Below, piece by piece: positions 966 to 57,644 of a stretch of DNA of 64,000 nt. Under the pieces are notes generated by a model, which saw only the letters and a list, made by a program, of their open reading frames with translations, was not told the origin of the DNA and ran no database searches. Position 1 is the first letter of the stretch; every line of letters begins with the position of its first letter. This DNA is from Candidatus Magasanikiibacteriota bacterium (GTDB taxonomy: Bacteria; Patescibacteriota; Patescibacteriia; Magasanikbacterales; GWA2-37-8). Location: NCBI GenBank assembly GCA_023246655.1, contig JAHFHX010000002.1, forward strand, positions 31,693 to 95,692. Reading direction: 5' to 3'. The translations under genes were made by a program, and so were the position numbers.

Positions 966-1334
966 TTATTTTTGTTTTAGCAACGAACCAATATACAAAT
1001 TCAATTGCATTTTTACTTCTTCATATTTTCTGATGAGGTCAGAACTTGATGCTTTTTCCATATATCCTCTACTCGCTGCGACAATAAGATGACTTTGCAA
1101 TTCTTGTAACTCACCGCGAGCAATATACAACACTCGAACTTTATCTGCATAATGAAATCGCCCATCAGCTTCTGCGAAATTAGCTAGCAAACTATTAGCC
1201 GACCGATTCATCTGGTCAACTAACCCGTATATTTCTGACTTGGGAAAAGTTTGTGACAGAATAAAAATTTTTTTCTGCAATTCATATGCTTTAAGCCACA
1301 GAGGAGCTTCATAAAATTTTTTATACCCTCGCAT
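966..1334 (-). CDS. Four-helix-bundle protein (23S rRNA intervening-sequence protein family).
   Basis: 122 aa. Pattern ...QMNRSANSLLANFAEADGRF...YIARGELQELQSHLIVA is typical of this family. Confidence 0.65.
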   Translation of the reverse strand: MRGYKKFYEAPLWLKAYELQKKIFILSQTFPKSEIYGLVDQMNRSANSLLANFAEADGRFHYADKVRVLYIARGELQELQSHLIVAASRGYMEKASSSDLIRKYEEVKMQLNLYIGSLLKQK

Positions 1335-3339: not shown

Positions 3340-4416
3340 TTATTTTTTAATCCACCTCAAATACGCCTCGCACAATGGCATTAAGTCTCCTTCTAAAACT
3401 TCTTCTGGATTCGTGGCCTTGTATTCCATGCGATGATCATTAACCATGTGATACGGATGCAACACGTATGAGCGAATCTGGTTTCCCCATTCTGCAGACT
3501 TGTATTCGCCACGTAACTCTTGCCGTTCTTTCGCCATTTTTTCTTCTTCGAGACGATGTAATTTGGCTTTCAGAACTTTCATAGCGACTTCTTTGTTTTG
3601 GGTTTGCGAGCGTTCGTTTTGGCATTGGACGGTGAGGCCGGTGGGAATGTGGACGATGCGGACGGCCGAGTAAGTAGTGTTCACACTCTGCCCACCTTTA
3701 CCGCCACTCATAAAAGTATCAACTCTCAAATCTTCTGGCTTGATCTCAATTTTGATCTCATCACTAAGCTCGGGCAAAACTTCAATGAGTGCAAATGACG
3801 TGTGCCTCATCTTCTCCGCGTCAAACGGAGAAATGCGAACTAAACGATGTACGCCATGTTCAGATTTTAAATAACCAAAAGCATAGCGGCCTTTCACTTC
3901 AAACATCACAGATTTATAACCCGCTTCCTGCCCACGCGATTCGTCAATAATACGCGTTGACCAGCCTTGCTTTTCACAAAACCTCATTACCATTCGAAGC
4001 AACATCTCCGCCCAATCTTGGGCCTCGGTACCACCACTGCCAGCGTGGATAGCCACGATGGCGCTGTTTTTGTCGTATGGCCCATTAAGGAGAAGAAAAA
4101 ATTCGTAGTCGGTAAATTGCTTTTCCAATTCAGCAGTTTGTTTTTCAATTTCGGTAGTGAGCGATGCATCACCAGACTTATCTAGCTCAATTAACTCGTC
4201 TACTTGTTTGCTTAGAGCATCCCATTTTTCTACTTCACTTTTGATATCTTGATAATCCTGAGAAACTGTTTGCGCGTTTTCAGGATTACCCCAAAAATTG
4301 GGCTGGTTCATTTCATCCCCGAGCTGTTGTAATTTATTTCTTAAACTATCAATCTTGAGAAGCTGGGTTGTTTGTTGAATTTTCTCTTTTAATAAATTCA
4401 ATCGTTCAATCGTCAT
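3340..4416 (-). CDS. prfB: Peptide chain release factor 2.
   Basis: GGQ motif (SGGKGGQSVNTT) and the RF2-specific SPF motif (RISPFDAEK). The 358-aa ORF is contiguous. Confidence 0.9.
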   Translation of the reverse strand: MTIERLNLLKEKIQQTTQLLKIDSLRNKLQQLGDEMNQPNFWGNPENAQTVSQDYQDIKSEVEKWDALSKQVDELIELDKSGDASLTTEIEKQTAELEKQFTDYEFFLLLNGPYDKNSAIVAIHAGSGGTEAQDWAEMLLRMVMRFCEKQGWSTRIIDESRGQEAGYKSVMFEVKGRYAFGYLKSEHGVHRLVRISPFDAEKMRHTSFALIEVLPELSDEIKIEIKPEDLRVDTFMSGGKGGQSVNTTYSAVRIVHIPTGLTVQCQNERSQTQNKEVAMKVLKAKLHRLEEEKMAKERQELRGEYKSAEWGNQIRSYVLHPYHMVNDHRMEYKATNPEEVLEGDLMPLCEAYLRWIKK

Positions 4417-4471
4417 ATTATTATCAATTTACCAATTCCCTCTCCTCAAAGAGAGGGGGACCTTTGATAAT

Positions 4472-4957
4472 TCAAAAAATCCTCACCACCCCCACCGTCG
4501 CCAAAAGTACAATACTGTTTCCAATTACCACCCCCGCAAATAAATACGGTAGCGACTTGTGCATGGGGTAGCCGAGAATAAAGGCAATAAGAGAAGCCGA
4601 GAAAGCACCATTGACTGGTGAGGGAATACTCAAAAATAATAGGAGGCCGATGAGCCCATATTTTTCGTAGCGGGCGAATTTTTTTTGAGCATGATCAATG
4701 GACTTTATCCAACCGCGAGCGAAAAAATGGTCATGGGTGGAAATCCAATTATGAAATTTTTCGGCAAGGAGCGTAATTGCCACCACTGGAACCATATTCC
4801 CAAGCACCACCAACAAAAACGCTTCCCAGGCAGGAAGATGGAAACCAGCGATGGCAACTGGTAAAGCGAACCGTTCCACCAAGGGCAACGTAGCCATAAG
4901 AAGTGTGCCAATAACAGGCGGGAAAGTTTCCAAAAAATGAATGAGTGCTTGCAACAT
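4472..4957 (-). CDS. Small polytopic membrane protein (putative small multidrug-export-like family).
   Basis: 161 aa with 4 hydrophobic segments. Confidence 0.4.
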   Translation of the reverse strand: MLQALIHFLETFPPVIGTLLMATLPLVERFALPVAIAGFHLPAWEAFLLVVLGNMVPVVAITLLAEKFHNWISTHDHFFARGWIKSIDHAQKKFARYEKYGLIGLLLFLSIPSPVNGAFSASLIAFILGYPMHKSLPYLFAGVVIGNSIVLLATVGVVRIF

Positions 4958-4998
4958 ATTTGGTGTTTCGCACAGTATGATACTCCCTTTTTATTCCC

Positions 4999-5027
4999 TT
5001 GACAAATGGATTTTTTTATGCTAAATT
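4999..5027 (+). promoter_or_regulatory. Sigma70-like promoter TTGACA-N17-TAAATT upstream of the GC-rich SDR gene.
   Basis: cccTTGACAaatggatttttttatgcTAAATT, followed by attAGGAGGggtccATG at 5113-5131. Confidence 0.5.
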
Positions 5028-5128
5028 TTTTAGTTGGTTTGCATTAATGTGGGAAAAAAGATGGCGACTTATCGCTTTCTCTTTCCCCACATTAAGCGCC
5101 ACATAACCGGCGCGATTAGGAGGGGTCC

Positions 5129-5935
5129 ATGGACGCACAACAGCAACTCCGCCGGAAATATGCCGGCAAAACGATCGTCGTAACAGGCGCCACGTCCGGC
5201 AACGGGCAGGCACTGGCCAACCTGCTGCTCGCCCTGGGAGCAGTGGTCATCGGCCTCGGACGGAACGTCGCCCGCCTCGCGGAGTTGGAATGCCGCGGAG
5301 GCATTCCGTACCAGCTCGACCTCAGCGACTTCGCGGCCATCGACGAATTCGTCACGTGGTTTGATTTGCATTATGAGCGATGCGATGGTCTCTTCCATCT
5401 GGCCGGGACGACGCTGGTGGGAGAGGCTGGTGCGGCTGAATTCCAGGCTTTCAAGGCAGCGGACCTGGATGGCCCCGTCCGCCTGGCGGAGGGGTTCTTA
5501 AGCACTATGAACCGCGGCGCAACTGTGGCGATGGTTTCGTCAATCGCCGCAGCTGTGCCCGAAGCGCATGGCCTCCGCCAGTATGCGGAGGTGAAAGGCG
5601 CTGTCGCGAGCTGGTGCGGGCAAAATCGCGCGCGGTTCACGGCGTCAGGCGCAAACCTGATGCTTATCGCAATGGGGGCGATCGCGACCAACGTTGGCCG
5701 CAGTGCCGGGTTGGGCGGCGCCTTTAACCGCGCAGCTGAAATGCTGCTGCCGCCCCCGGAGCGGTACTCGCCGCAAATTCTCAAGGACGCCGCCGCGGGC
5801 AAGCCTGCCAGCTTCCCCGGCCGCTTCGCAAGCCTGACCACCTACCAGAACGGCACCTGCCAAGTACGGGTCGGGCGCAAAGCGCTCGTTCTGGCACTCG
5901 AAGCAGGCGTTTGGTTCGCGCACCTCGGCAAGTAG
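5129..5935 (+). CDS. Short-chain dehydrogenase/reductase (SDR) encoded in a about 65% GC islet.
   Basis: TGATSGNGQA Rossmann motif, catalytic Ser (MVSS) and YAEVK (YxxxK). GC content contrasts with the neighbouring sequence. Confidence 0.75.
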   Translation: MDAQQQLRRKYAGKTIVVTGATSGNGQALANLLLALGAVVIGLGRNVARLAELECRGGIPYQLDLSDFAAIDEFVTWFDLHYERCDGLFHLAGTTLVGEAGAAEFQAFKAADLDGPVRLAEGFLSTMNRGATVAMVSSIAAAVPEAHGLRQYAEVKGAVASWCGQNRARFTASGANLMLIAMGAIATNVGRSAGLGGAFNRAAEMLLPPPERYSPQILKDAAAGKPASFPGRFASLTTYQNGTCQVRVGRKALVLALEAGVWFAHLGK

Positions 5936-6043
5936 GCACCCACTTGCGCAAGCAACAAACCAGCCCACAATGTCCTTAACGCAAGATTAATTAAAAACTC
6001 TTGCTCTGAGGACAGGGCTGGTTTTTTGATCTAGATACCAAAA

Positions 6044-6080
6044 TCCCCTCGCAACTACGAGGGGATTTTATTATTGTTTT
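6044..6080. terminator. Bidirectional intrinsic terminator.
   Basis: aaaatCCCCTCGcaactaCGAGGGGatttt is flanked by A and T runs and lies between a convergent gene pair. Confidence 0.6.
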
Positions 6081-6202
6081 TATCAGACCACCACAACTCT
6101 TGTCACAATCTAACTTGATCATGCTGAGAGTTGTGCGTGGTGGTCTGATTCCAGATTGCTCGCCCCCCGTCACTATTAACGGGGGGCACTGGTGCGGGCC
6201 GC

Positions 6203-6364
6203 CTAGCGGTGCGGCTGCGGGTGGTGGGTGGCGAACAGCCAACCCAACGCCGCCAGCCCGCCTACCGCCAACAGCCCGCCGGCCACGTTGTGGCCGGAAA
6301 GCCCCACGATGGGGCCGGACGCGGCGACGACCGCCGCGACCGTAATGCCAACGATGCGCTTCAT
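6203..6364 (-). CDS. Small hydrophobic peptide (about 53 aa) in the GC-rich islet.
   Basis: GGAGGAGGtgcccATG precedes MKRIVGITVAAVVAASGPIVGLSGHNVAGGLLAVGGLAALGWLFATHHPQPHR. Confidence 0.4.
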   Translation of the reverse strand: MKRIVGITVAAVVAASGPIVGLSGHNVAGGLLAVGGLAALGWLFATHHPQPHR

Positions 6365-6598
6365 GGGCACCTCCTCCCCCGCTTGCAAACAGCCTTTTGG
6401 CTGTATACCGCATAAGGAGGGGGGATCCCACACGGCAAGCAGAACATCTCTTAAAGATAGGCTACTTGCCGAGAAGGAATTACATTTAAAAAGAACTTAT
6501 TTTCTTTTATAACTATACAGAATAGCATAAAATTTTATTTTTGTCAAGTATTATTTACTCATTGAGTGATTTGTGTGGATAACTAATACCTTATATTA

Positions 6599-6627
6599 TT
6601 GACATAAAATGCGCTTTTACTTATACT
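6599..6627 (+). promoter_or_regulatory. Near-consensus sigma70 promoter TTGACA-N17-TATACT for the Met-rich gene.
   Basis: TTGACAtaaaatgcgcttttactTATACT. A structured about 80-nt leader follows. Confidence 0.55.
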
Positions 6628-6713
6628 TTAGCAAAGGTCGATGTAAAGTAAACTTTACTTTTTACTACCAAACCCTGGCACACAACCGTGCTTGGGTTTA
6701 AAAAATCACCTCT

Positions 6714-6980
6714 ATGATGAACAATGCCATGGGCGCTATGCCGATGATGGATGACGCCATGATGGTGGATATGATGAAAAAAAGCGGCATGCCGGCCGAC
6801 GACAAAATGATGATGGGCATGATGAAGGACATGATGATGGGTATGAACAAGATGACGATGCACATGAAGAAGAACTGCGGGATGAAGGATGAAGAGTGTA
6901 TGAAGTGCATGAATGCTTGCATGTCCATGATGATGGACCCCAAGATGATGGATGGAATGATGATGGACAAAACCATGTAA
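6714..6980 (+). CDS. Methionine-rich small protein (88 aa, 36 Met, 4 Cys).
   Basis: MMNNAMGAMPMMDDAMMVDMMKK...CGMKDEECMKCMNACMSMMMD. It has its own promoter upstream and a terminator downstream. The antisense His-rich ORF is the codon mirror of this gene. Confidence 0.6.
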   Translation: MMNNAMGAMPMMDDAMMVDMMKKSGMPADDKMMMGMMKDMMMGMNKMTMHMKKNCGMKDEECMKCMNACMSMMMDPKMMDGMMMDKTM

Positions 6981-8823: not shown

Positions 8824-9243
8824 TCATGGAGAGCTTTTGATTACTTGTGTATCTTTTTTCTTAAAATCCAGCGACGCCGAATTGATGCAAAACCGTTGGC
8901 CGGTGGGTTTAGGGCCGTCGTCAAACACGTGGCCGAGGTGGCCGCCACACCGGTTGCACATTACTTCGGTCCTTATCATGCCGTAGGTTGTATCGGAATC
9001 CATCATCACATTCTCCTTGGCTACTGGAGCATAAAAGCTGGGCCAACCGGTGCCAGAATCAAATTTGGTATCGGAGGAGAATAGCTCATTGTCGCAAGCG
9101 GCGCAGACGTACATCCCGGCATCGTGGTTATCCCAGTACTTGCCGGTAAAGGCGGCTTCGGTGCCTTTCTCAAATAGTACGTGCTTTTGTTGTGCGGTGA
9201 GAGTAACCATTTTTTGTGAATTGATATTAGGAGATATTTTCAT
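8824..9243 (-). CDS. msrB: Peptide-methionine (R)-S-oxide reductase MsrB.
   Basis: CAACDNELF...GTGWPSF...[21 protein letters not shown] (SelR fold, both CxxC pairs). Confidence 0.9.
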
Positions 9244-9676: not shown

Positions 9677-10303
9677 TTAACGTTTGCGTTTGCTAGCGTT
9701 CACCGCATCCGGAATAAAAATAAGGGCGGCGCCGTTCATGCAGTAGCGTTTGCCGGTGGGGAGCGGGCCGTCGTCAAAGACGTGACCAAGGTGACCACCA
9801 CATTTAGATATTACCTCAACTCTGGTTTCAAAGGCAAGGGAGTGATCTTCTTTTATAACCACTGCGTCTGGTTTAATCGGCGCCCAAAAACTCGGCCAGC
9901 CGGTGCCGGAATCATATTTCTGCTCGGAGCGAAATAGTGGTTCACCACAATCGGCGCTCACGTAGGTGCCCGGACGCGTTTCAAAATCCAGGGGGCTACT
10001 AAACGGGCGCTCCGTTCCCTTTTGACGAAGAATATAATACTGCTCGGGCGTAAGTTTGCGCCGCCACTCAGCGTCGGTTATGCTGATGGTGGCAATGGGA
10101 GTGGAAGAAGCACGCATCTCGAAAGTGCTTTTACGACGAGCATCTAAATTTTGTCCGACACGAAACGCCCAACCAATTTGGCCAATCGCAAGAGCAAAGC
10201 TCAGCACTACGGTGATGACGAGGATAATGAGAATGATTTTATACGAATGGGACATGATGTGATGGTTGGAAATTATGTAAAGAGGTCTGGCTTCTTTACA
10301 CAT
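9677..10303 (-). CDS. msrB: MsrB with an N-terminal transmembrane anchor (likely extracytoplasmic).
   Basis: [21 protein letters not shown] helix, then ADCGEPLF...GTGWPSF...[15 protein letters not shown]. Confidence 0.85.
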
Positions 10304-10784
10304 GACACGTTCCTAACCCGCGTTTGTGCAAATACTGCTGGTGATATTCTTCCGCGCGGTAGAATGGCTCGGCGGGAACAATTTGGGTGACAATTGGATT
10401 TTTGAATTTGCCGGACTTATCCATCATTTCTTTAGACGCGCGAGCCACTTGTTCTTGCTCGGGAGTGTAGAAAAAAATGACCGAGCGATATTGACTGCCA
10501 TAATCTGGTCCCTGGCGATTCATGGTGGTGGGGTTGTGGTTTTCCCAAAAAAGTTTTAATAATTGTTCATAGCTAACCCTGCTAGGATCATATGTAATGT
10601 GCACAACTTCAGCATGACCAGTATCATCGCTGCAGACATTTTCATAACTTGGATTTTTCTTGGTACCGCCCATAAAGCCTGCGGCGGTTTCTACCACACC
10701 GGGAATGACACGAAATAATTCCTCTACTCCCCAAAAACAGCCGGCGCCAAAGGTGGCTTCTTGTGACTTTATTGAATTTTCCAT
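10296..10784 (-). CDS. msrA: Peptide-methionine (S)-S-oxide reductase MsrA.
   Basis: [15 protein letters not shown] active-site motif. The stop overlaps the downstream msrB start. Confidence 0.9.
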
Positions 10785-12518: not shown

Positions 12519-13103
12519 ATGCGCAAAACATCTCGTTCGCTCGCAGCGCTGGCTGTCGCGTTCATGACGCTGGGCGCTGGCTGTGCCCAGGCTCCGCAAG
12601 CCGCAGTCCAACCGGCCGCGGAACAAACCGAAAGCACGGCGATGGAACAAACAGTGCCAGGCTCTACCGAAGGCGTGATGGAAAAAAAAACCGAAGCCAC
12701 AATGCAGCGGCAGGAACCGGCGATGGCACAATTCACCGGGACGGTGCTGGCTGGAAAATCCGTCCCGCTTTTGGACTTTAACAAAAGCGATTATGACATG
12801 GCTATAAAATCGGACAAACTCGTGGTGCTTTATTTTTACGCTTCATGGTGCCCGGAGTGCCAAATCGAGTTCCCTAAAATGCAAGCCGCGTTTAACGGGC
12901 TCACCGGCGACAAGGTGGTTGGCTTCCGCGTAAACTTTAATGATTCCGATACCGATGACACTGAACAATCCCTGGCACGCGAATTTGGTGTGGCCTACCA
13001 GCATACCAAAGTGTTTGTGAAAAATGGGACGCGTGTCCTTAAGGCACCGGATTCGTGGGATACGGAGCGGTATATGACTGAAATCGCGAAAGCGATACAA
13101 TAA
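12519..13103 (+). CDS. Thioredoxin-fold lipoprotein (TlpA/ResA-like redoxin).
   Basis: Signal peptide plus lipobox LGAGCAQ, and the YASWCPECQ CxxC motif. Confidence 0.75.
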   Translation: MRKTSRSLAALAVAFMTLGAGCAQAPQAAVQPAAEQTESTAMEQTVPGSTEGVMEKKTEATMQRQEPAMAQFTGTVLAGKSVPLLDFNKSDYDMAIKSDKLVVLYFYASWCPECQIEFPKMQAAFNGLTGDKVVGFRVNFNDSDTDDTEQSLAREFGVAYQHTKVFVKNGTRVLKAPDSWDTERYMTEIAKAIQ

Positions 13104-13108
13104 TTTTG

Positions 13109-13221
13109 TGTCATTGCGAGCGAAACGGAGAGTGAAGCGAAGCAATCTCCCTGTTTAAGTAATTCTCAAATCCAGGGGATTGCCACGTCGTTCGCCGCGA
13201 GGCTCACTCCTCGCAATGACA
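13109..13221. repeat. Family-A palindromic element (intergenic).
   Basis: gtcattgcgagcgaaacggag...gcaatctccc...ggggattgcc...ctcctcgcaatgaca. Confidence 0.7.
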
Positions 13222-13257
13222 CACTACCACCTACAACCTAATTCTTAATTCCTCATT

Positions 13258-13968
13258 ATGTCCCCCACCAACCTCATTTTCTCTTTCACCGCCGGGCTCG
13301 TGTCGTTTTTGGCGCCGTGCGTCCTCCCCATTATTCCGGGCTTTTTGGCCTACCTCGCGGGGGCGTCCTTGGCGGACAGCACGGGGTCAAAGCGCAAAGA
13401 CGTGTTTATCAATAGCGTATTTTTTGTGCTGGGATTTTCGCTGGTATTTGCGGCACTCGGAGTGCTTTTGAATTCGGTACTGGAACGGGTGGCGTATGAT
13501 GTGCAAATTTGGCTGGGGCGCGTTGGGGGCCTCATTATTATTTTCTTTGGGCTGTATTTGACGGGGCTTATTAAAATTGGATTTTTAGAGAAAGAGTATA
13601 AGTTTAAAGTCACCACGAAATTCAAATCAAAATATCTTACGTCGCTTTTGTTTGGCGCGGCGTTTGCAGCCGGGTGGACGCCGTGCGTGGGGGCGGTCTT
13701 GGGCGGCATTCTGGCGCTCGCAGCCTCACAGCCCGGCTCGGCTTTTGCTCTCCTGCTTTCGTATTCACTAGGCCTGGGAGTACCCTTTCTGATTGTGGGG
13801 TTATTTGCCGCGCCAGCTTCGCGCCTCATCAATCGTTACGCCGGCGCCCTTAAGTACGTTAACTTTATCTTTGGGCTCATCCTCATCGCACTCGGAGTTT
13901 TGATTTTTACGAACAGTTTAAGTTTGGTTGCGAACTTTTCTTTGTTGAATAAGTTTTTGTTGAAATAA
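13258..13968 (+). CDS. ccdA: Cytochrome c-type biogenesis / thiol-disulfide transporter CcdA (DsbD core).
   Basis: FLAPCVLPIIPGFLAYLAG and GWTPCVGAVLGGILALA, the two conserved Cys-containing TM motifs. Confidence 0.85.
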   Translation: MSPTNLIFSFTAGLVSFLAPCVLPIIPGFLAYLAGASLADSTGSKRKDVFINSVFFVLGFSLVFAALGVLLNSVLERVAYDVQIWLGRVGGLIIIFFGLYLTGLIKIGFLEKEYKFKVTTKFKSKYLTSLLFGAAFAAGWTPCVGAVLGGILALAASQPGSAFALLLSYSLGLGVPFLIVGLFAAPASRLINRYAGALKYVNFIFGLILIALGVLIFTNSLSLVANFSLLNKFLLK

Positions 13969-25971: not shown

Positions 25972-26769
25972 TTATTTAACTATTTCTCCTTCAATTACTG
26001 TGCCACTTGATGGCGGAGTGTGAGTAGATTTTTTAGTAATGATAAGTTGTTGCAGCACCATGAGTGCCGTACTCAAAAACCAATAGAGCGTCAGCCCTGC
26101 CGGAAATCTAATACCAATAATAGCGGTCATAACTGGCATCATATACAGCATTTGCTTGTTCATCATGGCCGCCATGCCTTCGTCTTTTCCGCCTTCACCC
26201 GCTTCCTTCGGTGGCTGTTTTCGACTTAAGGTCTTAGCTTGGAAGAATTGGGCCACACCAGCGAGTAGTGCCAACACAATGCTGGGTTTAGCTAAATTAA
26301 TAAATCCGAGTGACATGGCATTAATAGTACCAGGGTTATGCACAAATGAGTATAGGTTCTCGCCTAACTTATTGGAGGCAAGCCCATCTCGGAGAACCCA
26401 AAAAAGAGCCAGGAGAATAGGAAGTTGAATAAGCATGGGCAGACAGGAACTCAGTGGGTTAATTTTATGCTTTTTATACAATTCCATTGTGGCTTGGGCC
26501 TGCTTTTGTTTATCATTGACGTATTCTTTTTGAATGTGCTGGAGCTTTGGCTGAAGCTCAGCCATGGATTTTTGGGCTCTGATGGAAGAGTTAGTTAGTG
26601 GATATAAGACAAGCCGTATCAACACCGTCACCACAAAAATTACTATACCCACATCGTGACCAGGAAGAATGTTGTACAACTCAACAAAAAGATTGAAGAT
26701 GGGCTTATAGAGAACGAGATGGAAGAGAGAAGAGATCATAACGAAAAAATGACAAATAACAAATTTCAA
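25972..26769 (-). CDS. yidC: Membrane protein insertase YidC (short form).
   Basis: ...KINPLSSCLPMLIQLPILLALFWVL...YMMPVMTAIIGIRFPAGLTLYWFLS. Confidence 0.85.
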   Translation of the reverse strand: MKFVICHFFVMISSLFHLVLYKPIFNLFVELYNILPGHDVGIVIFVVTVLIRLVLYPLTNSSIRAQKSMAELQPKLQHIQKEYVNDKQKQAQATMELYKKHKINPLSSCLPMLIQLPILLALFWVLRDGLASNKLGENLYSFVHNPGTINAMSLGFINLAKPSIVLALLAGVAQFFQAKTLSRKQPPKEAGEGGKDEGMAAMMNKQMLYMMPVMTAIIGIRFPAGLTLYWFLSTALMVLQQLIITKKSTHTPPSSGTVIEGEIVK

Positions 26770-26857
26770 ATGTCAAATAAAATTCAAAATCCAAAAATCA
26801 AATTTTGACATTTGAGTTTTGGGCTTGATTTGATATTTGTCATTTGGATTTTTGGAA

Positions 26858-28072
26858 TTAAACTTCAGTTTTAGGTGTTTCCTCGGCTGGCACTGCAACT
26901 TCTTCAATAGCTGCCGCTTCTGCCTCCTGGGCAGGCGCTCCCTCTTGCGCCACGTTGAGTTTCCATCCGGTAAGTTCGGAAGCGAGGCGGACATTTTGAC
27001 CACCCCGGCCAATGGCGAGGGAGTATTGCTCAGGAGCAACCAAGACGCGCGCAGTTTTTTCCGTTTCATTGAGCTCAACCTTCAGTACTTTTGCCGGCGA
27101 CAGAGCTTTGCTAATATACCCAGCGGCGTCGTCAGTATATTGGATTACATCAATTTTCTCGCCTCCCAGCTCGGTGATGATTGTGGTGATGCGACTACCG
27201 CGCTGCCCGATGCATGAGCCAATGGGGTCGATGGATTCATCACTGGTTGCCACCGCCACTTTGGAACGGAAGCCAGCGTCGCGTGCAATACCTTTAATTT
27301 CAATACGACCGTCGGCGACCTCGGGAATTTCTTCGGCAAAAATAGCTTTAACCATACCAGGGTGAGCACGGGACAAAATAATTTCTGGACCACGACTGCT
27401 CATTTCCACCGACACCACATACATTTTCATTCGTGCGCCCGGGCGATATCGTTCGGTATGAATTTGATGATCAGAGGGCATGATGCCAGTAATTTTACCC
27501 AGGTCAACTAAAACTTTCCGTCCTTCTACTCGTTGGATGGTCCCCATGATAACTTGGCCTTCTTGTGCTTTGAAATCACCAAACACCATGTTCCGTTCAG
27601 CCTCGCGAATTTTTTGGATAATAACTTGTTTGGCAGTCTGAGCGGCCATACGACCAAACTCGTGGGTAATTTCGAGCGGCATTTCTAAAACATCCCCGAG
27701 TTTGGCTTTTTTATTAAACGCAATAGCTCCTGCCAGCATCAACTCCAATTTTGGATTAAATCGTGGCAAATCCGCCGTTTCCTCATCAGTTAGTTCGCGC
27801 TCCTCCTCACGCGCTTTTTCTCGACGGACAGCTAATTCTTCCTGGGCTTTCTCCAGTACCTCCGGATCGATATCTGCCACCACGGTCTTAACATCCCAAG
27901 CTTGCATATCTCCTGTTTCCGGATCGAATTTAACTTTAATATTCTGCTGCTTGTTGCCAAAATCTTTACGGTATGCAGCCGCGAGCGCTGCTTCGATGGT
28001 TTCCATTACAGCCTCATACGATAAATTTTTTTCATCGCAGAGTGCTTGGATAGCTTTGGTGATCTCGGACAT
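26858..28072 (-). CDS. nusA: Transcription termination/antitermination factor NusA.
   Basis: S1 and KH regions (GIARDAGFRSKVAV, GRGGQNVRLASELTGWKLNV). Confidence 0.9.
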   Translation of the reverse strand: MSEITKAIQALCDEKNLSYEAVMETIEAALAAAYRKDFGNKQQNIKVKFDPETGDMQAWDVKTVVADIDPEVLEKAQEELAVRREKAREEERELTDEETADLPRFNPKLELMLAGAIAFNKKAKLGDVLEMPLEITHEFGRMAAQTAKQVIIQKIREAERNMVFGDFKAQEGQVIMGTIQRVEGRKVLVDLGKITGIMPSDHQIHTERYRPGARMKMYVVSVEMSSRGPEIILSRAHPGMVKAIFAEEIPEVADGRIEIKGIARDAGFRSKVAVATSDESIDPIGSCIGQRGSRITTIITELGGEKIDVIQYTDDAAGYISKALSPAKVLKVELNETEKTARVLVAPEQYSLAIGRGGQNVRLASELTGWKLNVAQEGAPAQEAEAAAIEEVAVPAEETPKTEV

Positions 28073-28344
28073 AACGTTAAGTGAAAAAATTAAAAATCAA
28101 AAAGAAAAATTATGGAGCCTGCCCACTGGCAGACAAATCGCTATGCAACAGTATTATAATCGATTTGCCAAGCAAACACAATTATTTTACATTTTGAATT
28201 TTTCTTTTTGATTCTTTATTAAGAAAGAGCACTCTTTTCAAAGTGCTCATGTTGCTTATCAATGATATCATGCATTCATTGTTCTTGTCAAGAACGTTTA
28301 ACAAGGATGACATACGGGTTATTTTTGAAATTGACGTAGCGGGA

Positions 28345-28983
28345 TTAAGTGGTTTGGGATGTTTCCAAATTCTTTCTATTTATCTGTGTTTGTTCAGGTT
28401 CTCTCATAATACCAAGATCGGCTAGATCAATGTGCCGTCGTCCCAGACGTTCTGCTAATTTGTTGCGGCCATGAAATAATCTAGACATAACTGTACCAAG
28501 TGGTATATCAAGCTTTTCAGCAATCTCCTTATATGAATTGCCGGCGGCTAATAAGCTTACCACCTCACGGAGAGCAGGTTTTAATGCACTGATTGCTGTA
28601 ATTATTTCTTGCCGCAATAATAAATCAGAGCGATCCGTAGTTTTTTTATCCAACGTCCCAGCTAATACAAATTCAGGATCGTCAACATTAGAGCGATGCT
28701 TTTGCCTACGTAAATAATCTATGATTGCATTCTCAGCTATCCTATATAACCAAGTTTTCACCCCACTTCCTTGTCTAAATGATTCTCGGGCTTCAAGCGC
28801 TTTGATGGTGGTTTCCTGCGCGATATCCTTGGAAAACTGGCCGCTGCGATCCTCAATTCTGTATTTATGCACCATTGCCTTGATCCTGCGCAAAAGTTCG
28901 GGAAATTCCTGGGCAATGGCCTCTGCGGACAATTGCTCCGGAGCTGAGACAGCAATATCGCTAATGGCTGGTCTTTCTAACAT
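28345..28983 (-). CDS. ECF-type RNA polymerase sigma factor.
   Basis: Region 2 KTWLYRIAENAIIDYLRRQ, and region 4 SYKEIAEKLDIPLGTVMSRLFHGRNKL. Confidence 0.85.
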   Translation of the reverse strand: MLERPAISDIAVSAPEQLSAEAIAQEFPELLRRIKAMVHKYRIEDRSGQFSKDIAQETTIKALEARESFRQGSGVKTWLYRIAENAIIDYLRRQKHRSNVDDPEFVLAGTLDKKTTDRSDLLLRQEIITAISALKPALREVVSLLAAGNSYKEIAEKLDIPLGTVMSRLFHGRNKLAERLGRRHIDLADLGIMREPEQTQINRKNLETSQTT

Positions 28984-29104
28984 ATAATTATTCCTCTTTA
29001 AATAGGTAACTAGACTTTCGACCCGGTCAATTATGTAATTATCATCAATACCTCCTAACTTGTCAAGATTACCAACTATAATATAACGCGATACTTTTAA
29101 ACTT

Positions 29105-29731
29105 TTAAATTTTACTCAATATCTTTAAAGGCGTTTTTCCAAAAATTTTTACCTTGTCTCCCACATCTAAAAATTTATACAATTTTTCGGCATTTTTGTA
29201 GGCAATGTTGACGCAACCATGGCTCATGGGACGCTTACCAAATTGGTTATGCCAATAGGCACCATGAAGATAGAACCCGGGCTTAAACTGAAGATTCCAT
29301 TTGGTATTGGGTAAATCATACCCTGGGCCAACATAATGAACGATCGGACGTTTCCTTTGAATGGAAAATTCGCCAATCGGAGTTGGGAGCTTGGAGATGC
29401 CACTTGAGATTGGAATCGTTCCAATTTTTACATTATTTAAAAAATAACTCATTTGTTGAGTCGCTAAATCAACTGCCACATAACGCGGGAGGCTGCGGTC
29501 ACGGTTGGCTTTTAGCGGATTGAAACCATTTTTAACTTCAATGCCGTCCGGATAGCCATCGGTGTCAGTATCGGAATTATGGGGGTCAGTGCCAAGCTGG
29601 GTTTCAATGGTATCGGAGAGACCGTCGTGATCGGAATCAAGTTCTTGAGCATGAGCAAAGAGAGGGCTTATCATCCAAATGGAAACAAATATATAAATAA
29701 TGACCTTTTTAAGCTGCATAATAATTTTCAA
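29105..29731 (-). CDS. Secreted L,D-transpeptidase (YkuD) with Asp-rich calcium-binding-type repeats.
   Basis: Signal peptide, DSDHDGLSDT.../DTDTDGYPDGIE repeats, and the catalytic HGCVNIAYKNAEKL. Confidence 0.8.
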   Translation of the reverse strand: MKIIMQLKKVIIYIFVSIWMISPLFAHAQELDSDHDGLSDTIETQLGTDPHNSDTDTDGYPDGIEVKNGFNPLKANRDRSLPRYVAVDLATQQMSYFLNNVKIGTIPISSGISKLPTPIGEFSIQRKRPIVHYVGPGYDLPNTKWNLQFKPGFYLHGAYWHNQFGKRPMSHGCVNIAYKNAEKLYKFLDVGDKVKIFGKTPLKILSKI

Positions 29732-29732
29732 T

Positions 29733-29800
29733 TTTTAATTTACAATCAAGCACCAATGTTCCAATGATCAATTGAAAATTAAAAATTGTAAATTGAGAAT
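29733..29800. repeat. AT-rich near-perfect inverted repeat (family D).
   Basis: aattttcaatttttaatttacaat ... attgtaaattaaaaattgaaaa orientation pair. The words are shared with 3229-3338. Confidence 0.5.
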
Positions 29801-29801
29801 T

Positions 29802-30788
29802 TCACTGCACTACTATATCACCAATCTGGTCCGTTCGCAAAATATCCGCCCCCGTGCGTTCGAGTCGCTTGAACACGCGGTGTGATGGATGGCCATATTT
29901 ATTTTTACCAACTGAGACGATGGCAGTTTTTGCCCGCACAATACTTAAAAATTCTTCACTGCTCCCCGAATCACTGCCATGGTGACCGACTTTGAGAGTG
30001 TCGGCGTGGAGGGCGGGGCAGGTGCCGACGCGCTCCCGCGCTCCCATTTGCGAGTCCTCCCCCTGCCCCCTCCCCTGCGGTGGAGGGGTGACGTTAGCTC
30101 CCCTCCCCACCGCAGGCCGTAGGTCCTCCGAGGAGGGTGGGAGGGTTAGGGAGAGGTCTGGCGTTGTCGTTCCACAATACTTCTCCATCAACACATCCTC
30201 CAACGGCACCTCCATATCGCCCGTGAATAAAAATCTTTCATTTCCGTGCGTCAGTTTAAAAACAATGGAGTAGTTATTACTATCGGCCGCGGCAACGTCC
30301 AAGTGGAGCGCCGGGTCGGGTGAAATAAATTGGAGTGTATCGCTGGCAATCGTCCAAGTCGTGGGCGACGCCATCGTAATAATCTTAGCCCCCGCTTCCT
30401 CATGCATCATTTTATTCCATTCTTGCCAATACGGATCATATTTTTTCTCGTGCCCATTCACAATAATATTTTTTACATTGTAGCGTTGCAGCACATCAAC
30501 ACACCCACCGTAGTGGTCCAGGTCCGGATGGGTGGCAACCACATAATCAATAGTGCGATTGTAAAATGGCAAATGGCGACCGAGTGCACTGAGCACGATT
30601 TTATTCGGTCCACAGTCTACCAGCATCTTTTGTCCATTTTCAAACTTGATGAGCGCACTATCCCCTTGGCCGATGTTGAGGAAGTCGACTTCGAAGTGGT
30701 GGGGGCGGTGGGAATCAAAATAAACATACAGGAGCATCCCTCCCGCTAATATCAAGCTTAGAATAATAACTACAATAATTTTTTTCAT
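29802..30788 (-). CDS. ComEC-type metallo-beta-lactamase domain protein (detached C-terminal ComEC module) with an in-frame GC-rich insert.
   Basis: FLNIGQGDSALIKF...VATHPDLDHYGG...LKVGHHGSDSGS...VSVGKNKYGHPS. Confidence 0.75.
   Translation of the reverse strand: MKKIIVVIILSLILAGGMLLYVYFDSHRPHHFEVDFLNIGQGDSALIKFENGQKMLVDCGPNKIVLSALGRHLPFYNRTIDYVVATHPDLDHYGGCVDVLQRYNVKNIIVNGHEKKYDPYWQEWNKMMHEEAGAKIITMASPTTWTIASDTLQFISPDPALHLDVAAADSNNYSIVFKLTHGNERFLFTGDMEVPLEDVLMEKYCGTTTPDLSLTLPPSSEDLRPAVGRGANVTPPPQGRGQGEDSQMGARERVGTCPALHADTLKVGHHGSDSGSSEEFLSIVRAKTAIVSVGKNKYGHPSHRVFKRLERTGADILRTDQIGDIVVQ
30040..30160. repeat. Family-C GC-rich hairpin insert.
   Basis: cCTCCCCtgcggtggaGGGGtg ... cCCTCCCCaccgcaggccgtaggtcctccgaggaGGGTGGGAGGG. 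Confidence 0.45.
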
Positions 30789-30863
30789 TGTTATTTTTTT
30801 GTAAAAAAATTATTGACAAACAAAAATCTTTATAGTACTGTCTACGACAGAGGAGGACCCCCC

Positions 30864-31298
30864 ATGAAAAAGCAGGCTCTTTTTTTCGTGGCCCATGATG
30901 ACCACTTAACTCGCTCTCTCATCAACGAGGGTCTCAAGCGCGCCTTCCCCGGGTGCGTTGTTCGCGAATTCAAAAGCGAGCGAGAGCTGCGCGAGCGGCT
31001 CTTTGAGCCGGGCATCACAGGCGTCATAATGGGCGCCTGCCTGCGCTGGTGCTTCCCCAGCGCGAACATGGCGATCCCGCCTGATCTGGCAGAGACGGGC
31101 TACGCCAAGGGAGCTGCTTGGCGCTGCTGGCAGATGCTCCGCGCGAACCCCGCCACGGCGCAAACGCCGTTGCTTGTGTGGGAGTTTTCGACCCTCATGT
31201 TCCGGGCAACCCCACCCGAAGACCGCGCGACGACGTACCTCGACTACAGAGTTGAGTGTCTGCTTGAGGCCATCTCGATCTCGTCCGCCCCGCTCTAA
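30864..31298 (+). CDS. Hypothetical protein in a about 60% GC islet (possible receiver-like fold).
   Basis: GAGGAGGaccccccATG, with a TTGACA at 30814. MKKQALFFVAHDDHLTRSLINEGLK... Confidence 0.35.
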   Translation: MKKQALFFVAHDDHLTRSLINEGLKRAFPGCVVREFKSERELRERLFEPGITGVIMGACLRWCFPSANMAIPPDLAETGYAKGAAWRCWQMLRANPATAQTPLLVWEFSTLMFRATPPEDRATTYLDYRVECLLEAISISSAPL

Positions 31299-31471
31299 AA
31301 ATTCTCTCCGAATACGTGCTCGTGCGAGGCGTATTCGACAGATAGACACGCAAGCAAGCAACCCCACTCGCACCAATGCAAAAACAGCTTTTTATAAGGC
31401 TGTTTTTGTTTTAAACAATTAAAAAAATGAAAAGATAAAAATTACAATTCAAAATTTTATATTTTGCTCTT

Positions 31472-32083: not shown

Positions 32084-32086
32084 ATT

Positions 32087-41982: not shown

Positions 41983-42081
41983 ATGTTTAATTTTAGGATT
42001 ACACGAATGGGCCTTGAGGCCCCACGAATAACACGGATACAATTGTATTCGCACGATTCGTGGCGCCGCAGCGCATTCGTG

Positions 42082-44235: not shown

Positions 44236-44272
44236 CAAGAAAAAATTAAATTGGTCAATTATTGATTTTTTG

Positions 44273-44301
44273 ATTGACAAAACCTGTTGTATCTGCTAAA
44301 C
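44273..44301 (+). promoter_or_regulatory. Sigma70-like promoter TTGACA-N17-TAAACT at the start of a GC-rich islet.
   Basis: TTGACAaaacctgttgtatctgcTAAACT, then AAGGAGAcccaaATG. Confidence 0.5.
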
Positions 44302-44346
44302 TCCGGCTATCTTCCTGGTGGAAGAAAAGAGACAAGGAGACCCAAA

Positions 44347-44717
44347 TGAGCCGTTTCGCCAAGTTTCTCAGCCTTCTCTTCCGCGCCTTTCTCGCCCTCT
44401 TCTTGAAGGCAAAAGAAAGGCCGGTCCTCATCATCGGGTCGCGGTGCTGGCGCATGCACCCCCGGTGTTTCGGGATGCGCTTCCTCGCGCCGCTGTGCCG
44501 CAGCACCGCGGCTGGGCTCGCCGGCTACAGCGTGCAGGAGCAAGATCTGCCGGCGGGGGCAACGCAGCAACCCATCTTCAGCCTGGCTGGGTTCGCCTGG
44601 CAGGGAGACATCAGCGCTGTGCGGACTGTACTCCCGCACCTGCCGGAACAAATCCAGCACGACCTCGCCAAGCTCATGATGCAGCGGCTCGCCGTCGAGG
44701 CCTCGCCGATGCAGTAG
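44347..44717 (+). CDS. Hypothetical protein in a about 65% GC islet.
   Basis: SD plus ATG. 123 aa, MSRFAKFLSLLFRAFLALFLKAKERPVLIIG... Confidence 0.35.
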
Positions 44718-45013
44718 GCCCCGATTCGTGGGGCAACGCAGACAACCGCACCTACGCGGCTCGTCTCGGACTATGTCCTTGATGGCGAGCCGCTTCCCAA
44801 ATTCCGTACAACGGATTTTTTTGTTTTTAAGACCCACCTAATCTAAGAGGGTTTATCCACACTGGACAAAATCACAGAAATGATGTAGGGTGATGGGTGG
44901 TTCTTTTTTGTTTGTTAAAACAAACCCGAGCGACTATTGTGCTGAGAAACCTATTTATCAGCAGACTGGTCGCCCGGTTTTTGTGGGGCGATACTTGAAC
45001 GGAGGTCTAAGCG

Positions 45014-45208
45014 ATGCGAAACCCCCAGGCGGGCCCCAAAGGGCCCAACAACAGCAACCTCCAGCAACAGGGCGGCAAACGGCGGTTCGAACCGCCGCCC
45101 CGGGACATCTCGGCGCCCGCTCAGCGCCGCTTCGGCAACGGCGACGCCGGCCACCAGGCCTGGCGGACGACCGTTCGGCGGGCCGGCAGCCCGCAGAAGG
45201 GGGGCTAG
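45014..45208 (+). CDS. Hypothetical small Arg/Gly-rich protein (GC-rich islet).
   Basis: GGAGGtctaagcgATG. 64 aa. Confidence 0.3.
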   Translation: MRNPQAGPKGPNNSNLQQQGGKRRFEPPPRDISAPAQRRFGNGDAGHQAWRTTVRRAGSPQKGG

Positions 45209-45211
45209 GAC

Positions 45212-45346
45212 CATGGACGCAGAAGAACGACCGAAGAGCTGCTGCCCGACGGACGAGGAGCTCATGGCGCTGATGCCTGCGCTCCTGCTCCAGCGAAAGC
45301 TGGACCTCACCCTCAAGAGCGTTCGGCTCCCGCCGCCCGCCCGCTG
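45212..45346 (+). CDS. Hypothetical 44-aa ORF (GC-rich islet).
   Basis: AAGGGGGGctaggaccATGG. MDAEERPKSCCPTDEELMALMPALLLQRKLDLTLKSVRLPPPAR. Confidence 0.25.
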
Positions 45347-45642
45347 AACGCGGCCCGGCCAACCTGCTGCAACTCCCCGCCCCCCCCCCGCGATCGCGCC
45401 CACTACAACGATCTCGCCTGGCCGAAGTGACCGCTGCACGCGTGTCCACGGCCAGGCCACCCAATTCAGGCTTAGGTCTGTTTTTTTATTTCAATCCCAG
45501 CATTCAATTGTTATATTATCTCCGTATTGATACAGTATATTTCATAGCGATCTCACACAACAACAAATGTTGTACTAATCATAAGTGAGACAGAGATTCC
45601 TTGCTATGGCTAGGAATGATAATTAAATGCAGCCAATAATAT

Positions 45643-46317: not shown

Positions 46318-46327
46318 ATAAATCTCT

Positions 46328-55254: not shown

Positions 55255-55322
55255 AAAACAAAACCACCCGTGTCTCCTACATGAGTATCCAAATACTTAG
55301 ATACTCATGTAGGGTGTGGGTG
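55255..55322. terminator. Long hairpin between convergent genes.
   Basis: aaccacccgtgtcTCCTACATGAGTATCcaaatacttaGATACTCATGTAGGgtgtgggtggtt. It shares the tgtagggtg.gggtggtt motif with 44895-44925. Confidence 0.55.
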
Positions 55323-55395
55323 GTTTTGTTAAACCAGCGCTGCTGACAACGCGGGTGTAGGCAGTTGCTTGCTAAGCTCTCTGGTCCTTTGGACC

Positions 55396-55773
55396 TCAAT
55401 TGCCTCCGCCTCCTTCCTGGCGCCACACCTCGTAGCGCTCCCAGCGGGCGGCCGACATCACCTCGGGCTCGTGCTCCGAGGTTTCCGGGAACTCGCCGGC
55501 CGTGAGCATCTCGAGGGTGGGCTCGAGCTCCTGCTCGAACCGATAGCGGGTGGCCAGCTCCCGCAGCTGACTGAGCGAAAAGAGGATGCACGCTCCCAGC
55601 GGGGCCCGGGTATGGGCCGCACCGACGATGAGCGGCTCTCCGCCTTCCCCGGTTGCCACCACCTGTCCGCTCCACAGGCCGCGGAAGATGGCAACAACTA
55701 CCTCGGAGCCGTTGATGACTACCCAATCAACGGCGCAGACCGTTTCCCAATGCGACGGGATTTTGCCCTGCAT
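55396..55773 (-). CDS. Hypothetical protein in a about 62% GC islet.
   Basis: AGGAGAccacgATG. 125 aa, MQGKIPSHWETVCAVDWVVINGSEVVV... Confidence 0.35.
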   Translation of the reverse strand: MQGKIPSHWETVCAVDWVVINGSEVVVAIFRGLWSGQVVATGEGGEPLIVGAAHTRAPLGACILFSLSQLRELATRYRFEQELEPTLEMLTAGEFPETSEHEPEVMSAARWERYEVWRQEGGGGN

Positions 55774-55944
55774 CGTGGTCTCCTTTCTCCCGAACAATGC
55801 GGGTATAAGGTAGTAGACCATGTTTTAACTCTCTGGTCAAACTGCTATGACCCAATTTAGGAATCACAATTATCTTGCTTTTTATCGGTAAATTTTGTAG
55901 AATGGGATCTTGGAGAAGTTCGTAATACATTATTTGTTTTCACT

Positions 55945-56837: not shown

Positions 56838-56911
56838 GTCAGGGTAGCTCAGACGGTTAGAGCGTAGCATTCATAACGCTAAGGTCGAGGGTTCAACTCC
56901 CTCCCCTGACA
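56838..56911 (+). tRNA. tRNA-Met (anticodon CAT, elongator-type; possibly Ile2-lysidine).
   Basis: GTCAGGGTAGCTCAGACGGTTAGAGCG...loop TTCATAA...GGTTCAACTCCCTCCCCTGACA. G1-C72 are paired, and there is no GGG/CCC run in the anticodon stem. Confidence 0.8.
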
Positions 56912-57304
56912 CACGGACGACGCCCAACTTTCGGCGTTGTGGACAACCAATTTGACCGGAATTTATACATAATATAAAATTAATTTAGTTCTTTCACAGT
57001 TTACTATCATGAGCGGTGCGAGGGAATCGGCCCTAAGACCACCCAGCAACCCCAGCTAAGTTTGGGGTGCTAATTCCGACCCTAAAAATAGGATAGGGAA
57101 AGATACGTCCCAATGCAGCTGTTGGAAATTGGCTTACATAAAGGCTCGTAACTCTTCCATCATTTTGGGGTTAGGAGCCTTTTTTGTTTTTAGCGAAAGA
57201 TATAGCACAGTAAATTGGCCGGACGATTGAATGACTTACTATAAGTTATACAACCGTCCGGGCAAAGCTGTTCAACCAAGCCCCGGATAGGATGGAGACC
57301 AGCG

Positions 57305-57496
57305 ATGGTCAGGCGTACCCCCGAGGAGATCGATAAGATCTCCGCCCCCAGCCTCAATTACAACCGCTTCACCACGGAGGAGGATGCCCGGCGCAATCGC
57401 GCCCGGCTCCCGCCGGACCATCCGCTCTATGAGCCCCTCCCGCCTGATGAGGCGTTGCGGGCTCTCTCCCCCACCCGCCCCCGCGCTTGCGCCTAG
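57305..57496 (+). CDS. Hypothetical 63-aa ORF in a about 65% GC islet.
   Basis: GGATGGAGaccagcgATG. Followed by a long hairpin. Confidence 0.3.
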   Translation: MVRRTPEEIDKISAPSLNYNRFTTEEDARRNRARLPPDHPLYEPLPPDEALRALSPTRPRACA

Positions 57497-57542
57497 CACC
57501 CCCAACCCTACTCTTGCGTTCCAAACTCGTAGGAGAGGCCGA

Positions 57543-57606
57543 GACGAGACCGCATCCCAGCTTATGTATTTAAATTTTTAAATACATAAGCTGCGGTCTC
57601 GTTAAT
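57543..57606 (+). terminator. Long imperfect hairpin terminator.
   Basis: gaccgcatcccagcttatgtatttaaa/tttaaatacataagctgcggtc. Confidence 0.5.
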
Positions 57607-57644
57607 TGGGCGCTCTACATCTGCCTACATAAGGCATTTTTTGT

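Follow-up and report, generated by a model that had tools for sequence, protein, structure and literature searches.

The DNA analysed here is a stretch of 64,000 nt (hereafter the window) from contig JAHFHX010000002.1 of a Candidatus Magasanikbacteria bacterium, a member of the Patescibacteria or candidate phyla radiation (CPR). Bacteria of this radiation have tiny genomes and depend on hosts. Five short G+C-rich segments, which we call islets, are scattered in the window at or next to the places where a preliminary description of the sequence had reported them. By using a 150-nt GC profile together with 300-nt windows, we found that the islets are 0.37-1.4 kb in length with a GC content of 59-62%, against about 44% in the rest of the window and 45.2% in the window as a whole, and combined they make up 6.4% of it. 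The 193 non-islet 300-nt windows have a mean GC of 0.444 (sd 0.053) and two of them reach 58%; those inside the islets lie at z = 2.4-4.8, except for one AT-rich spacer. The composition shift at the islet borders is abrupt. The GC profile, the GC content at third codon positions (GC3) of the open reading frames (ORFs) and the ribosome-binding sites all bear out the earlier observation of GC-rich islets.

Eight ORFs were assigned to the islets, among them a gene for a short-chain dehydrogenase/reductase (SDR) and, convergent to it, one for a 53-aa peptide (pep53); the other six are named after their islet and product length (Table 1). Each has one frame with coding periodicity, with GC1 of 0.59-0.72, GC2 of 0.46-0.60 and GC3 of 0.74-0.91, and this three-base pattern (GC1 > GC2 << GC3) indicates that the ORFs are coding. 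It had been remarked that all six frames are open in the islets; this is true, and it is a trivial result of their composition, because stop codons are AT-rich and therefore scarce in GC-rich DNA. The 43 native ORFs of the window have a GC3 of 0.449 +/- 0.074 with a maximum of 0.608, and the islet ORFs lie 3.9-6.1 standard deviations above them; their GC2 is up by 1.7-4.9 sd and their GC1 is also raised. In the encoded proteins Ala, Gly, Arg and Pro are over-represented, while Lys, Asn and Ile are under-represented. The composition of the islet genes thus does differ from that of native genes, as had been claimed, in GC2 and amino-acid usage as well as in GC3. The dinucleotide distance (δ*) of islet coding sequence to native sequence is 109 and exceeds the native null, which has a mean of 44 and a maximum of 89. 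Judged from codon-position GC and amino-acid composition, these genes would have resided for long in a genome with some 62-66% GC.

The islet genes are equipped with their own expression signals (Table 1). A GGAGG, AAGGAG or GGAG motif stands 5-8 nt 5' of every islet start codon (8/8), so that the strong ribosome-binding sites of the preliminary description were borne out. Four canonical promoters of the TTGACA-N17-TAnnnT type were found, at 4999 (+), 6547 (-), 44274 (+) and 56952 (+). Islet 2 has a promoter-like TTGACA at 30813 with a weak -10 element, and for islet 4 no promoter reached the threshold of the scan. The promoter sites at the islets sit in the AT-rich flanks, outside the GC-rich part, and 11 of the 16 strongest TTGACA-type sites in the window serve native genes, including the promoters of infB and tRNA-Met. 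The promoters described earlier as like those of E. coli are thus present, but as the ordinary resident type, of the sigma-70 kind, and not as a foreign feature. Five of the 16 strongest sites belong to islets, which occupy only 6.4% of the sequence; this over-representation arises because each islet is a transcription unit of its own.

The earlier claim of hairpin terminators held clearly for four of the islets. The folding of the 3' regions of islets 1, 2, 4 and 5 gave z values of -3.9 to -10.2 against shuffled controls. In islet 3 the sequence that follows the first ORF, around the spacer, folds no better than chance (z = -0.5), the second unit gives a borderline value at its 3' end (z = -1.9), and only short terminator-like hairpins with T-runs are found there. 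The islet leaders are structured in three cases and contain a riboswitch for S-adenosylmethionine (SAM) in one. In the predicted fold of the pep53 leader (z = -5.6), CCCCCCUCC pairs with the GGGGGAGGAGG ribosome-binding site. Taken together, these signals show that each islet is a small independent expression unit.

Table 1. Features of the five islets, of their surroundings and of compared loci (L-numbers denote compared loci, with their own coordinates)
Feature	Coordinates	Strand	Details
Islet 1	5051-6481		GC 0.607
SDR promoter-like site	4999..5027	+	TTGACA-17-TAAATT (TG-extended); AT-rich flank
SDR leader hairpin	5044..5095	+	24-nt arms
SDR ribosome-binding site	5111-5118	+	AGGAGGGG; 3' of leader hairpin
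SDR	5129-5935	+	268 aa; GC3 0.74
SDR terminator region	5957..6075	+	long hairpin 5957-6024, then T-run; z = -10.2
Second hairpin within SDR terminator region	6034-6075		bidirectional
pep53 3' hairpins	6082..6192	-	G+C-rich 13-bp stem within 6151-6192; ~30-bp stem 6082-6149; z = -8.2
pep53	6203-6364	-	53 aa; GC3 0.91
pep53 leader (region with promoter)	6365..6547	-	leader ~150 nt
pep53 promoter	6547-6519	-	TTGACA-17-TATTCT
Islet 2	30842-31376		GC 0.604
Islet 2 unit	30813..31409	+	GAGGAGG ribosome-binding site; terminator hairpin 31378-31409
i2_144	30864-31298	+	144 aa; GC3 0.76
Islet 3	44303-45527		GC 0.611
Islet 3 first unit	44274..44830	+	promoter TTGACA-17-TAAACT; AAGGAG ribosome-binding site
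i3_123	44346-44717	+	123 aa; GC3 0.84
First-unit short terminator-like hairpin	44803-44815	+	T-run after
Islet 3 second unit	45001..45490	+	GGAGG site; hairpin 45416-45457; terminator-like site 45467-45480
i3_64	45014-45208	+	64 aa, basic; GC3 0.89
i3_44	45213-45347	+	44 aa; GC3 0.82
Islet 4	55295-55820		GC 0.618
Islet 4 unit	55257..55790	-	AAGGAGA ribosome-binding site; ~30-bp terminator hairpin 55257-55330, z = -7.2
i4_125	55396-55773	-	125 aa; GC3 0.80
tRNA-Met	56838..56912	+	conserved left flank of tRNA-Met|tsaD hotspot
Islet 5 promoter and SAM-I riboswitch aptamer with its terminator stem	56952..57190	+	TTGACC-17-TAAAAT
Islet 5	57238-57604		GC 0.591
Islet 5 unit	57214..57636	+	GGAG ribosome-binding site; leader common to L008
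i5_63	57305-57496	+	63 aa; GC3 0.83
Islet 5 hairpin	57543-57602	+	27 bp; z = -8.7; terminator-like site 57622-57636
GC-rich Prs copy (xenolog), L038	8895-9884
GC-rich Prs copy (xenolog), L055	7068-8024
GC-rich Prs copy (xenolog), L061	4963-5928
GC-rich Prs copy (xenolog), L063	11115-12191
GC-rich Prs copy (xenolog), L064	4363-5319
GC-rich Prs copy (xenolog), L071	11277-12344
GC-rich Prs copy (xenolog), L077	14609-15652
Methionine-cluster neighbour gene	8824-9243
Methionine-cluster neighbour gene	9677-10303
Methionine-cluster neighbour gene	10296-10784
Methionine-cluster neighbour gene	12519-13103
Methionine-cluster neighbour gene	13258-13968

The junctions of the islets were checked by exact-protein look-ups, which recovered separately assembled metagenome contigs that are 99.9-100% identical to the window. 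L002, from a different sample (ERZ27280021), covers 3817-6654 with both junctions of islet 1; L087 and L085, both from sample ERZ27276474, cover 26670-34788 and 41887-47255 with both junctions of islets 2 and 3, respectively. Over 2.8 kb, L002 differs from the window only at 6204 and 6234, two single-nucleotide polymorphisms that both lie in the 3' end of pep53; one is a stop loss, which extends the peptide to 62 aa in that sample, and the other changes Phe to Tyr. We concluded that islets 1-3 are real, and contamination or chimeric assembly, which had been considered for all the islets, is rejected for these three.

The SDR is the only islet product with a known family. It matches Pfam PF00106 above the curated cutoff (E = 8.3e-17) and the nearest solved structures at E of about 1e-15. 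Like the classical SDRs, it carries the Rossmann motif TGxxxGxG (as TGATSGNG), the catalytic Ser (in SS) and YxxxK (as YAEVK), and it is thus probably an active NAD(P)-dependent short-chain oxidoreductase; it differs from them in belonging to a rare subfamily: a search of 5.8 billion protein clusters gave no more than three relatives (41-56% identity). Two more relatives were found in IMG/VR viral contigs of 61% and 67% GC. One relative lies in a phage-like contig of 232-372 kb with 54% GC; in all three of these high-GC contigs the relative matches the local composition. The neighbours of the SDR gene in the 61% GC viral contig (L094) are of auxiliary type, namely a Dam methylase, NT5C, a Nudix/NrtR regulator and a cytidylyltransferase, and the 54% GC contig also has cytidylyltransferase-like, CoaE and DFP genes. 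These viral contigs hold relatives of the SDR and are not demonstrated donors. No close relative of it was found in GenBank phages or in PLSDB plasmids.

The other seven products gave no family in Pfam, NCBIfam, PHROGs or PADLOC at permissive thresholds, which agrees with the earlier statement that the products other than the SDR are unknown. PADLOC gave no defence-system match, and the only PHROG match of the islet ORFs is the generic one of the SDR. pep53 is hydrophobic with two hydrophobic segments and is probably a small membrane peptide that spans the membrane twice. It resembles type I toxins in being a small hydrophobic peptide with a leader predicted to occlude the ribosome-binding site; profile searches gave no known family for it, and a permissive Rfam scan of islet 1 gave no antitoxin RNA. 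For i2_144 no homolog was found, and its AlphaFold model (pLDDT 44.6) is unusable. The model of i4_125, in comparison, is confident (pLDDT 87.6, pTM 0.76). It shows three long beta-strands together with three helices, and it had no significant match in PDB or BFVD. i4_125 has three homologs among 1.84 billion representatives. The closest, at 46% identity, is encoded in a 66-69% GC islet of a contig of about 50% GC, between an MBL-fold (metallo-beta-lactamase) gene and an rpsA-like gene, and has a TTGACA promoter and a GGAGG site. The genes of the other two lie in contigs of 54-56% GC outside CPR-like contexts (L090 810-1150 and L089 470-733). Downstream of each stands a gene for a small, conserved protein of zinc-ribbon type, which may make up a two-gene module with the homolog; the window has no such partner. 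Scans of IMG/VR for i2_144, i3_123 and the i4 and i5 families, of JGI metagenomes for the i5 family, and of GenBank phages for i4_125 gave no match.

The sites of islets 3 and 5 were compared with those of relatives. The nearest TsaD matches among 185,579 species representatives are from Candidatus Magasanikbacteria or Patescibacteria metagenome-assembled genomes (MAGs) and reach at most 63-65% identity, and the window proteins form singleton clusters, which stem from an NCBI contig of 115.5 kb. In 27 relatives tRNA-Met lies within 120 nt of tsaD, while in the window and in L005, L006, L008 and L031 the gap is 0.6-2.8 kb, with 0.59-0.72 GC in its richest 300-nt window. The infB(-)/truB(+)/rny arrangement is likewise widely conserved; in nine relatives 14-192 nt separate infB from truB, and inserts of 0.7-1.2 kb with GC3 of about 0.9 are found in L099/L148, L108 and L143, with a weaker case in L116 (GC3 0.68). 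The insert of L099, which has a TTGACA-N17-TATAAT promoter, a GGGAGG site, two GC-rich ORFs and a terminator, mirrors the layout of islet 3, and the proteins are unrelated. In total, 119 segments at least 15 GC points above background were counted in about 2.1 Mb of relatives' loci. Islets 3 and 5 therefore sit between core genes at sites that show turnover among relatives. At the tRNA-Met|tsaD site of L005, a relative whose TsaD is 63% identical, there is a counterpart of i5_63 that is 44% identical, equally GC-rich and equipped with its own promoter and hairpin; the two share the motif ARxNRAxLPPDHPLYEP. This points to an old acquisition or to repeated exchange at the hotspot.

The leader of islet 5 contains a SAM-I riboswitch at 57002-57109 (+) with a score of 57.9 bits. 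The same riboswitch stands before tsaD in L008 (2453-2557), L031 (960-1062) and L012 (210-306), and in the four genomes it precedes four unrelated GC-rich ORFs, of 63 aa in the window and of about 295, about 81 and 48 aa in the other three. These lineages are thought to have minimal biosynthesis. The leaders of the window and L008 can be aligned as far as the ribosome-binding site, and their similarity ends at the start codon, which suggests replacement of the cargo behind a retained regulatory leader. The riboswitch-controlled ORF of L008 was at first taken for a DUF62 SAM hydrolase; Pfam did not confirm this guess and it was dropped. Near tsaD of another relative, a LOOT RNA (Rfam RF03000, 84 bits) is found at L013 7945-8068.

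A gene present in many relatives allowed us to ask whether GC-rich also means foreign in these genomes. The gene for Prs (phosphoribosyl pyrophosphate synthetase) adjoins tsaD in many relatives. Copies with GC3 of 0.22-0.52 are 59-77% identical to the Prs of the window and are its orthologs, while copies with GC3 of 0.64-0.88 are only 37-53% identical to it, and two further GC-rich copies about 26%. Among the GC-rich copies at least three groups can be told apart, which are mutually distant and unrelated. In some relatives a GC-rich prs replaces the native one, and in L077, which holds both kinds, it stands alongside it. By their divergence, the GC-rich Prs copies are foreign copies (xenologs), and this split by GC3 argues against an enrichment in GC that took place within the resident gene.

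We consider it likely that the five islets are horizontally acquired accessory genes in this CPR chromosome, which came in as self-contained units at intergenic hotspots. That they are foreign cassettes, as first proposed, is supported by their composition, by the absence of a counterpart from most relatives at the two sites and by the Prs xenologs. The proposal that they are recent is supported only in part, in view of the counterpart of i5_63 at the same site of a distant relative. The genes that flank the islets belong to the core: prfB, infB, truB, tsaD and a comEC-like gene. No integrase or transposase was found among the neighbours scanned, and no flanking direct repeats, target-site duplications or terminal inverted repeats beyond chance were found at the islet borders. 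DNA from high-GC donors would have been taken up and fixed at the hotspot sites, through recombination in the flanking core sequence and not by a recombinase that the element encodes. Natural transformation would be a likely route, because the genome encodes ComEC (DUF4131 and Competence domains, 32442-34358).

Several points weigh against this view of the islets. For seven of the eight products, which have few or no homologs, foreign origin rests on composition and on presence and absence, and patchy presence was seen at the sites of islets 3 and 5 only. The homolog of i5_63 in a distant relative means that islet 5 is not simply recent. The look-up for a neighbour of islet 4 returned no contig, so that junction-spanning contigs are at hand for islets 1-3 only; two of these three contigs (L085 and L087) stem from one and the same sample, which may or may not be independent of the reads behind the MAG. 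The islets are nearer to native sequence in dinucleotide composition (δ* 109) than to the high-GC viral contigs (173-211), and their coding sequence has, like native sequence, an excess of AA/TT and GC and a deficit of AC/GT. These native-like features argue against direct transfer from those phages, and a donor related to the recipient would fit them; such a donor is possible.

A bolder idea, which we hold to be doubtful, is that Magasanikbacteria keep fixed 'expression sockets' in which unrelated GC-rich ORFs, known homologs of which are few or absent, are swapped from an almost unsampled high-GC gene pool, with no element-encoded recombinase. A resident promoter, leader and ribosome-binding site may wait at a few intergenic sites, to which tRNA-Met|tsaD adds the SAM-I riboswitch, and the ORFs may come from phages or from the hosts of these episymbionts, a source almost unsampled in the 5.8 billion protein clusters. 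What led us to this idea is that the riboswitch is followed by a different ORF in each of four genomes, that two of these have a common leader up to the ribosome-binding site, and that at infB|truB the same promoter-plus-cassette layout carries different cargo in the window and in L099.

The islets might also be what is left of larger integrated mobile elements, of prophages for instance or of integrative elements at tRNA genes, that decayed and left nothing but their cargo, or 'morons'. This appears unlikely to us. The combination of promoter, ORF and terminator with deviant GC does match the definition of phage morons (PMC3594210), relatives of the SDR occur in viral contigs, and islet 5 lies beside a tRNA gene. 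However, neither an integrase nor phage structural genes nor att-like sequences were found near any of the five islets, GenBank phages gave no close relative of the SDR and none of i4_125, and PHROGs matched no islet ORF but the generic SDR. It would also be improbable that five remnants within 64 kb were each cut exactly to one transcription unit.

Horizontal acquisition of the islets has further to be set against the possibility that they are native genes whose GC was raised within the resident copy, either by GC-biased gene conversion at hotspots or by selection for GC-rich mRNA. The partly native-like dinucleotide signature and the position of the islets at recombination-prone hotspots would agree with this, and the GC of islets tracks that of the host across relatives (110-119 loci), a relation that is confounded by the detection threshold, for which reason the regression was not used. 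We nevertheless hold such enrichment to be quite improbable. The shift extends beyond GC3 to GC2 and amino-acid usage, and GC3 rises from 0.45 to 0.9, which is a very large step, across sharp borders. At the two sites that could be compared, most relatives lack a gene altogether, and the GC-rich Prs copies of relatives are xenologs from at least three sources and not accelerated orthologs.

A mis-joining of high-GC reads of another organism, by chimeric assembly or bin contamination, is very improbable, and for islets 1-3 it is largely refuted by the contigs that cover both junctions. It would account for the abrupt change of composition at the borders and for two contigs of other assemblies that stop at or inside an islet, namely L001, which ends at 6049 in the AT-rich spacer inside islet 1, and L086, which starts at 45472 at the edge of islet 3; these breaks could reflect strain-level presence and absence or branching of the assembly graph. 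It would not account for the precise regulatory context of each islet ORF, whose start codon follows a ribosome-binding site at a distance of 5-8 nt and which is flanked by promoter and terminator, nor for the leader of islet 5, whose homology with that of a relative extends as far as the ribosome-binding site. That the islets are structured non-coding RNAs or repeat elements is scarcely credible, since, for all the very stable hairpins and the GC-rich repeat families elsewhere in the window, the three-base periodicity is strong in one frame of 8/8 ORFs, three products have protein-level homologs, the Rfam matches in the window are confined to the SAM riboswitch and two tRNAs, with nothing beyond chance level in the permissive scan of islet 1, and the five islets have no similarity to each other at the DNA or protein level and no repeats in common, either among themselves or with the repeat families of the window.

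A sixth GC-rich patch, at 29902-30255, is not an islet; it is explained by a 76-nt GC-rich repeat (family D12) that lies in frame inside a gene. This copy (30076-30151) adds a Pro/Gly/Arg-rich segment to a ComEC-like MBL-fold gene; the second copy (61451-61526), 76% identical to the first, is inside an ORF of 1200 aa. The window also has at least three families of GC-rich palindromic repeats similar to miniature inverted-repeat transposable elements (MITEs) or repetitive extragenic palindromes (REPs), with several copies within long ORFs. Family one reads TGTCATTGCGAGGAG...CGACG..GCAATCTCCCC, family two GACAG.GATTCC...CTCGGAATGACA and family three is built on CCCCTCCCC/GGGGAGGG. Such palindromic repeats are found, for example, at 464-605, 2832-2932, 13130-13222, 32081-32131, 32871-32973, 33503-33608, 35838-35934, 36286-36333, 37816-37865, 41198-41304 and 49813-49860.

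Two further observations concern other genes of the window. An extremely methionine-rich protein of 88 aa is encoded at 6714-6980 (+), beside two MsrB (SelR) genes and genes for MsrA, a thioredoxin-like protein and a DsbD-like protein (Table 1); together they look like a cluster for the repair of methionine oxidation or for scavenging. The gene at 966-1334 (-) has 23S_rRNA_IVP and bAvd matches in Pfam. This family accompanies diversity-generating retroelements.

The window thus offers a clean example, with junctions verified for islets 1-3, of accessory genes that would arrive one transcription unit at a time, each with its full set of signals, at core-gene junctions that recur as insertion sites. 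No mobile-element machinery was found among the neighbours scanned, and the genome encodes a channel for DNA uptake. The hotspots are a place to seek lineage-specific functions in interactions between symbiont and host or with phages, and their cargo consists almost entirely of uncharacterised families. In addition, GC-rich islets in a MAG from the CPR should not be dropped as contamination on the basis of composition alone.

A literature search found no description of such cassettes for Magasanikbacteria, and several known systems invite comparison. Like integron cassettes, the islets are short, mostly hold a single ORF, often of unknown function, and have a hairpin-forming sequence after it. 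They differ from integron cassettes in having their own promoters and in being scattered and not tandem; they form no array, and the neighbours scanned include no integrase. Inspection by eye of the 3' hairpins of islets 2, 4 and 5, with no systematic pattern search, revealed no attC core (RYYYAAC/GTTRRRY).

The concept of the moron is said to come from Juhala and Hendrix. A phage moron has its own promoter and terminator and a deviant GC content and lies between two resident genes (PMC3594210). The islets are likewise transcription units of their own, with a weak promoter in islet 2, none above threshold in islet 4 and weak terminators in islet 3. Unlike morons, they lie in a cellular chromosome outside any prophage context, and their promoters are of the recipient's type.

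For groundwater Patescibacteria, one study attributes up to 13% of genome length to horizontal gene transfer (HGT), describes islands and single-gene transfers as common, with many transfers of single genes, and traces most of them to other Patescibacteria (PMC12455944). That work treats the same phylum; it differs from ours in using IslandViewer and MetaCHIP on known functions. A search by terms of some of its passages gave no Magasanikbacteria, no tRNA-linked sites, no sub-kilobase GC-rich cassettes lacking homologs and neither of the two hotspots, and GC is mentioned there only in passing.

The closest parallel is given by HGT hotspots that lack mobile elements, which are over-represented in transformable bacteria and recombine at the flanking core genes (Oliveira et al. 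2017, PMC5635113). As in those hotspots, the cargo in the window is variable, of foreign composition and placed between core genes, in one case beside a tRNA gene; there is no integrase or transposase, ComEC is encoded, and different relatives carry different cargo at the same site. The units of the window differ in being only 0.4-1.4 kb with 1-3 ORFs, and the lineages compared here are deeply diverged (TsaD 55-65% identical) and not strains of one species. The phenomenon is therefore of a known kind, that of HGT hotspots and morons, and here it is unusually small and cleanly bounded, with cargo that has few or no homologs.

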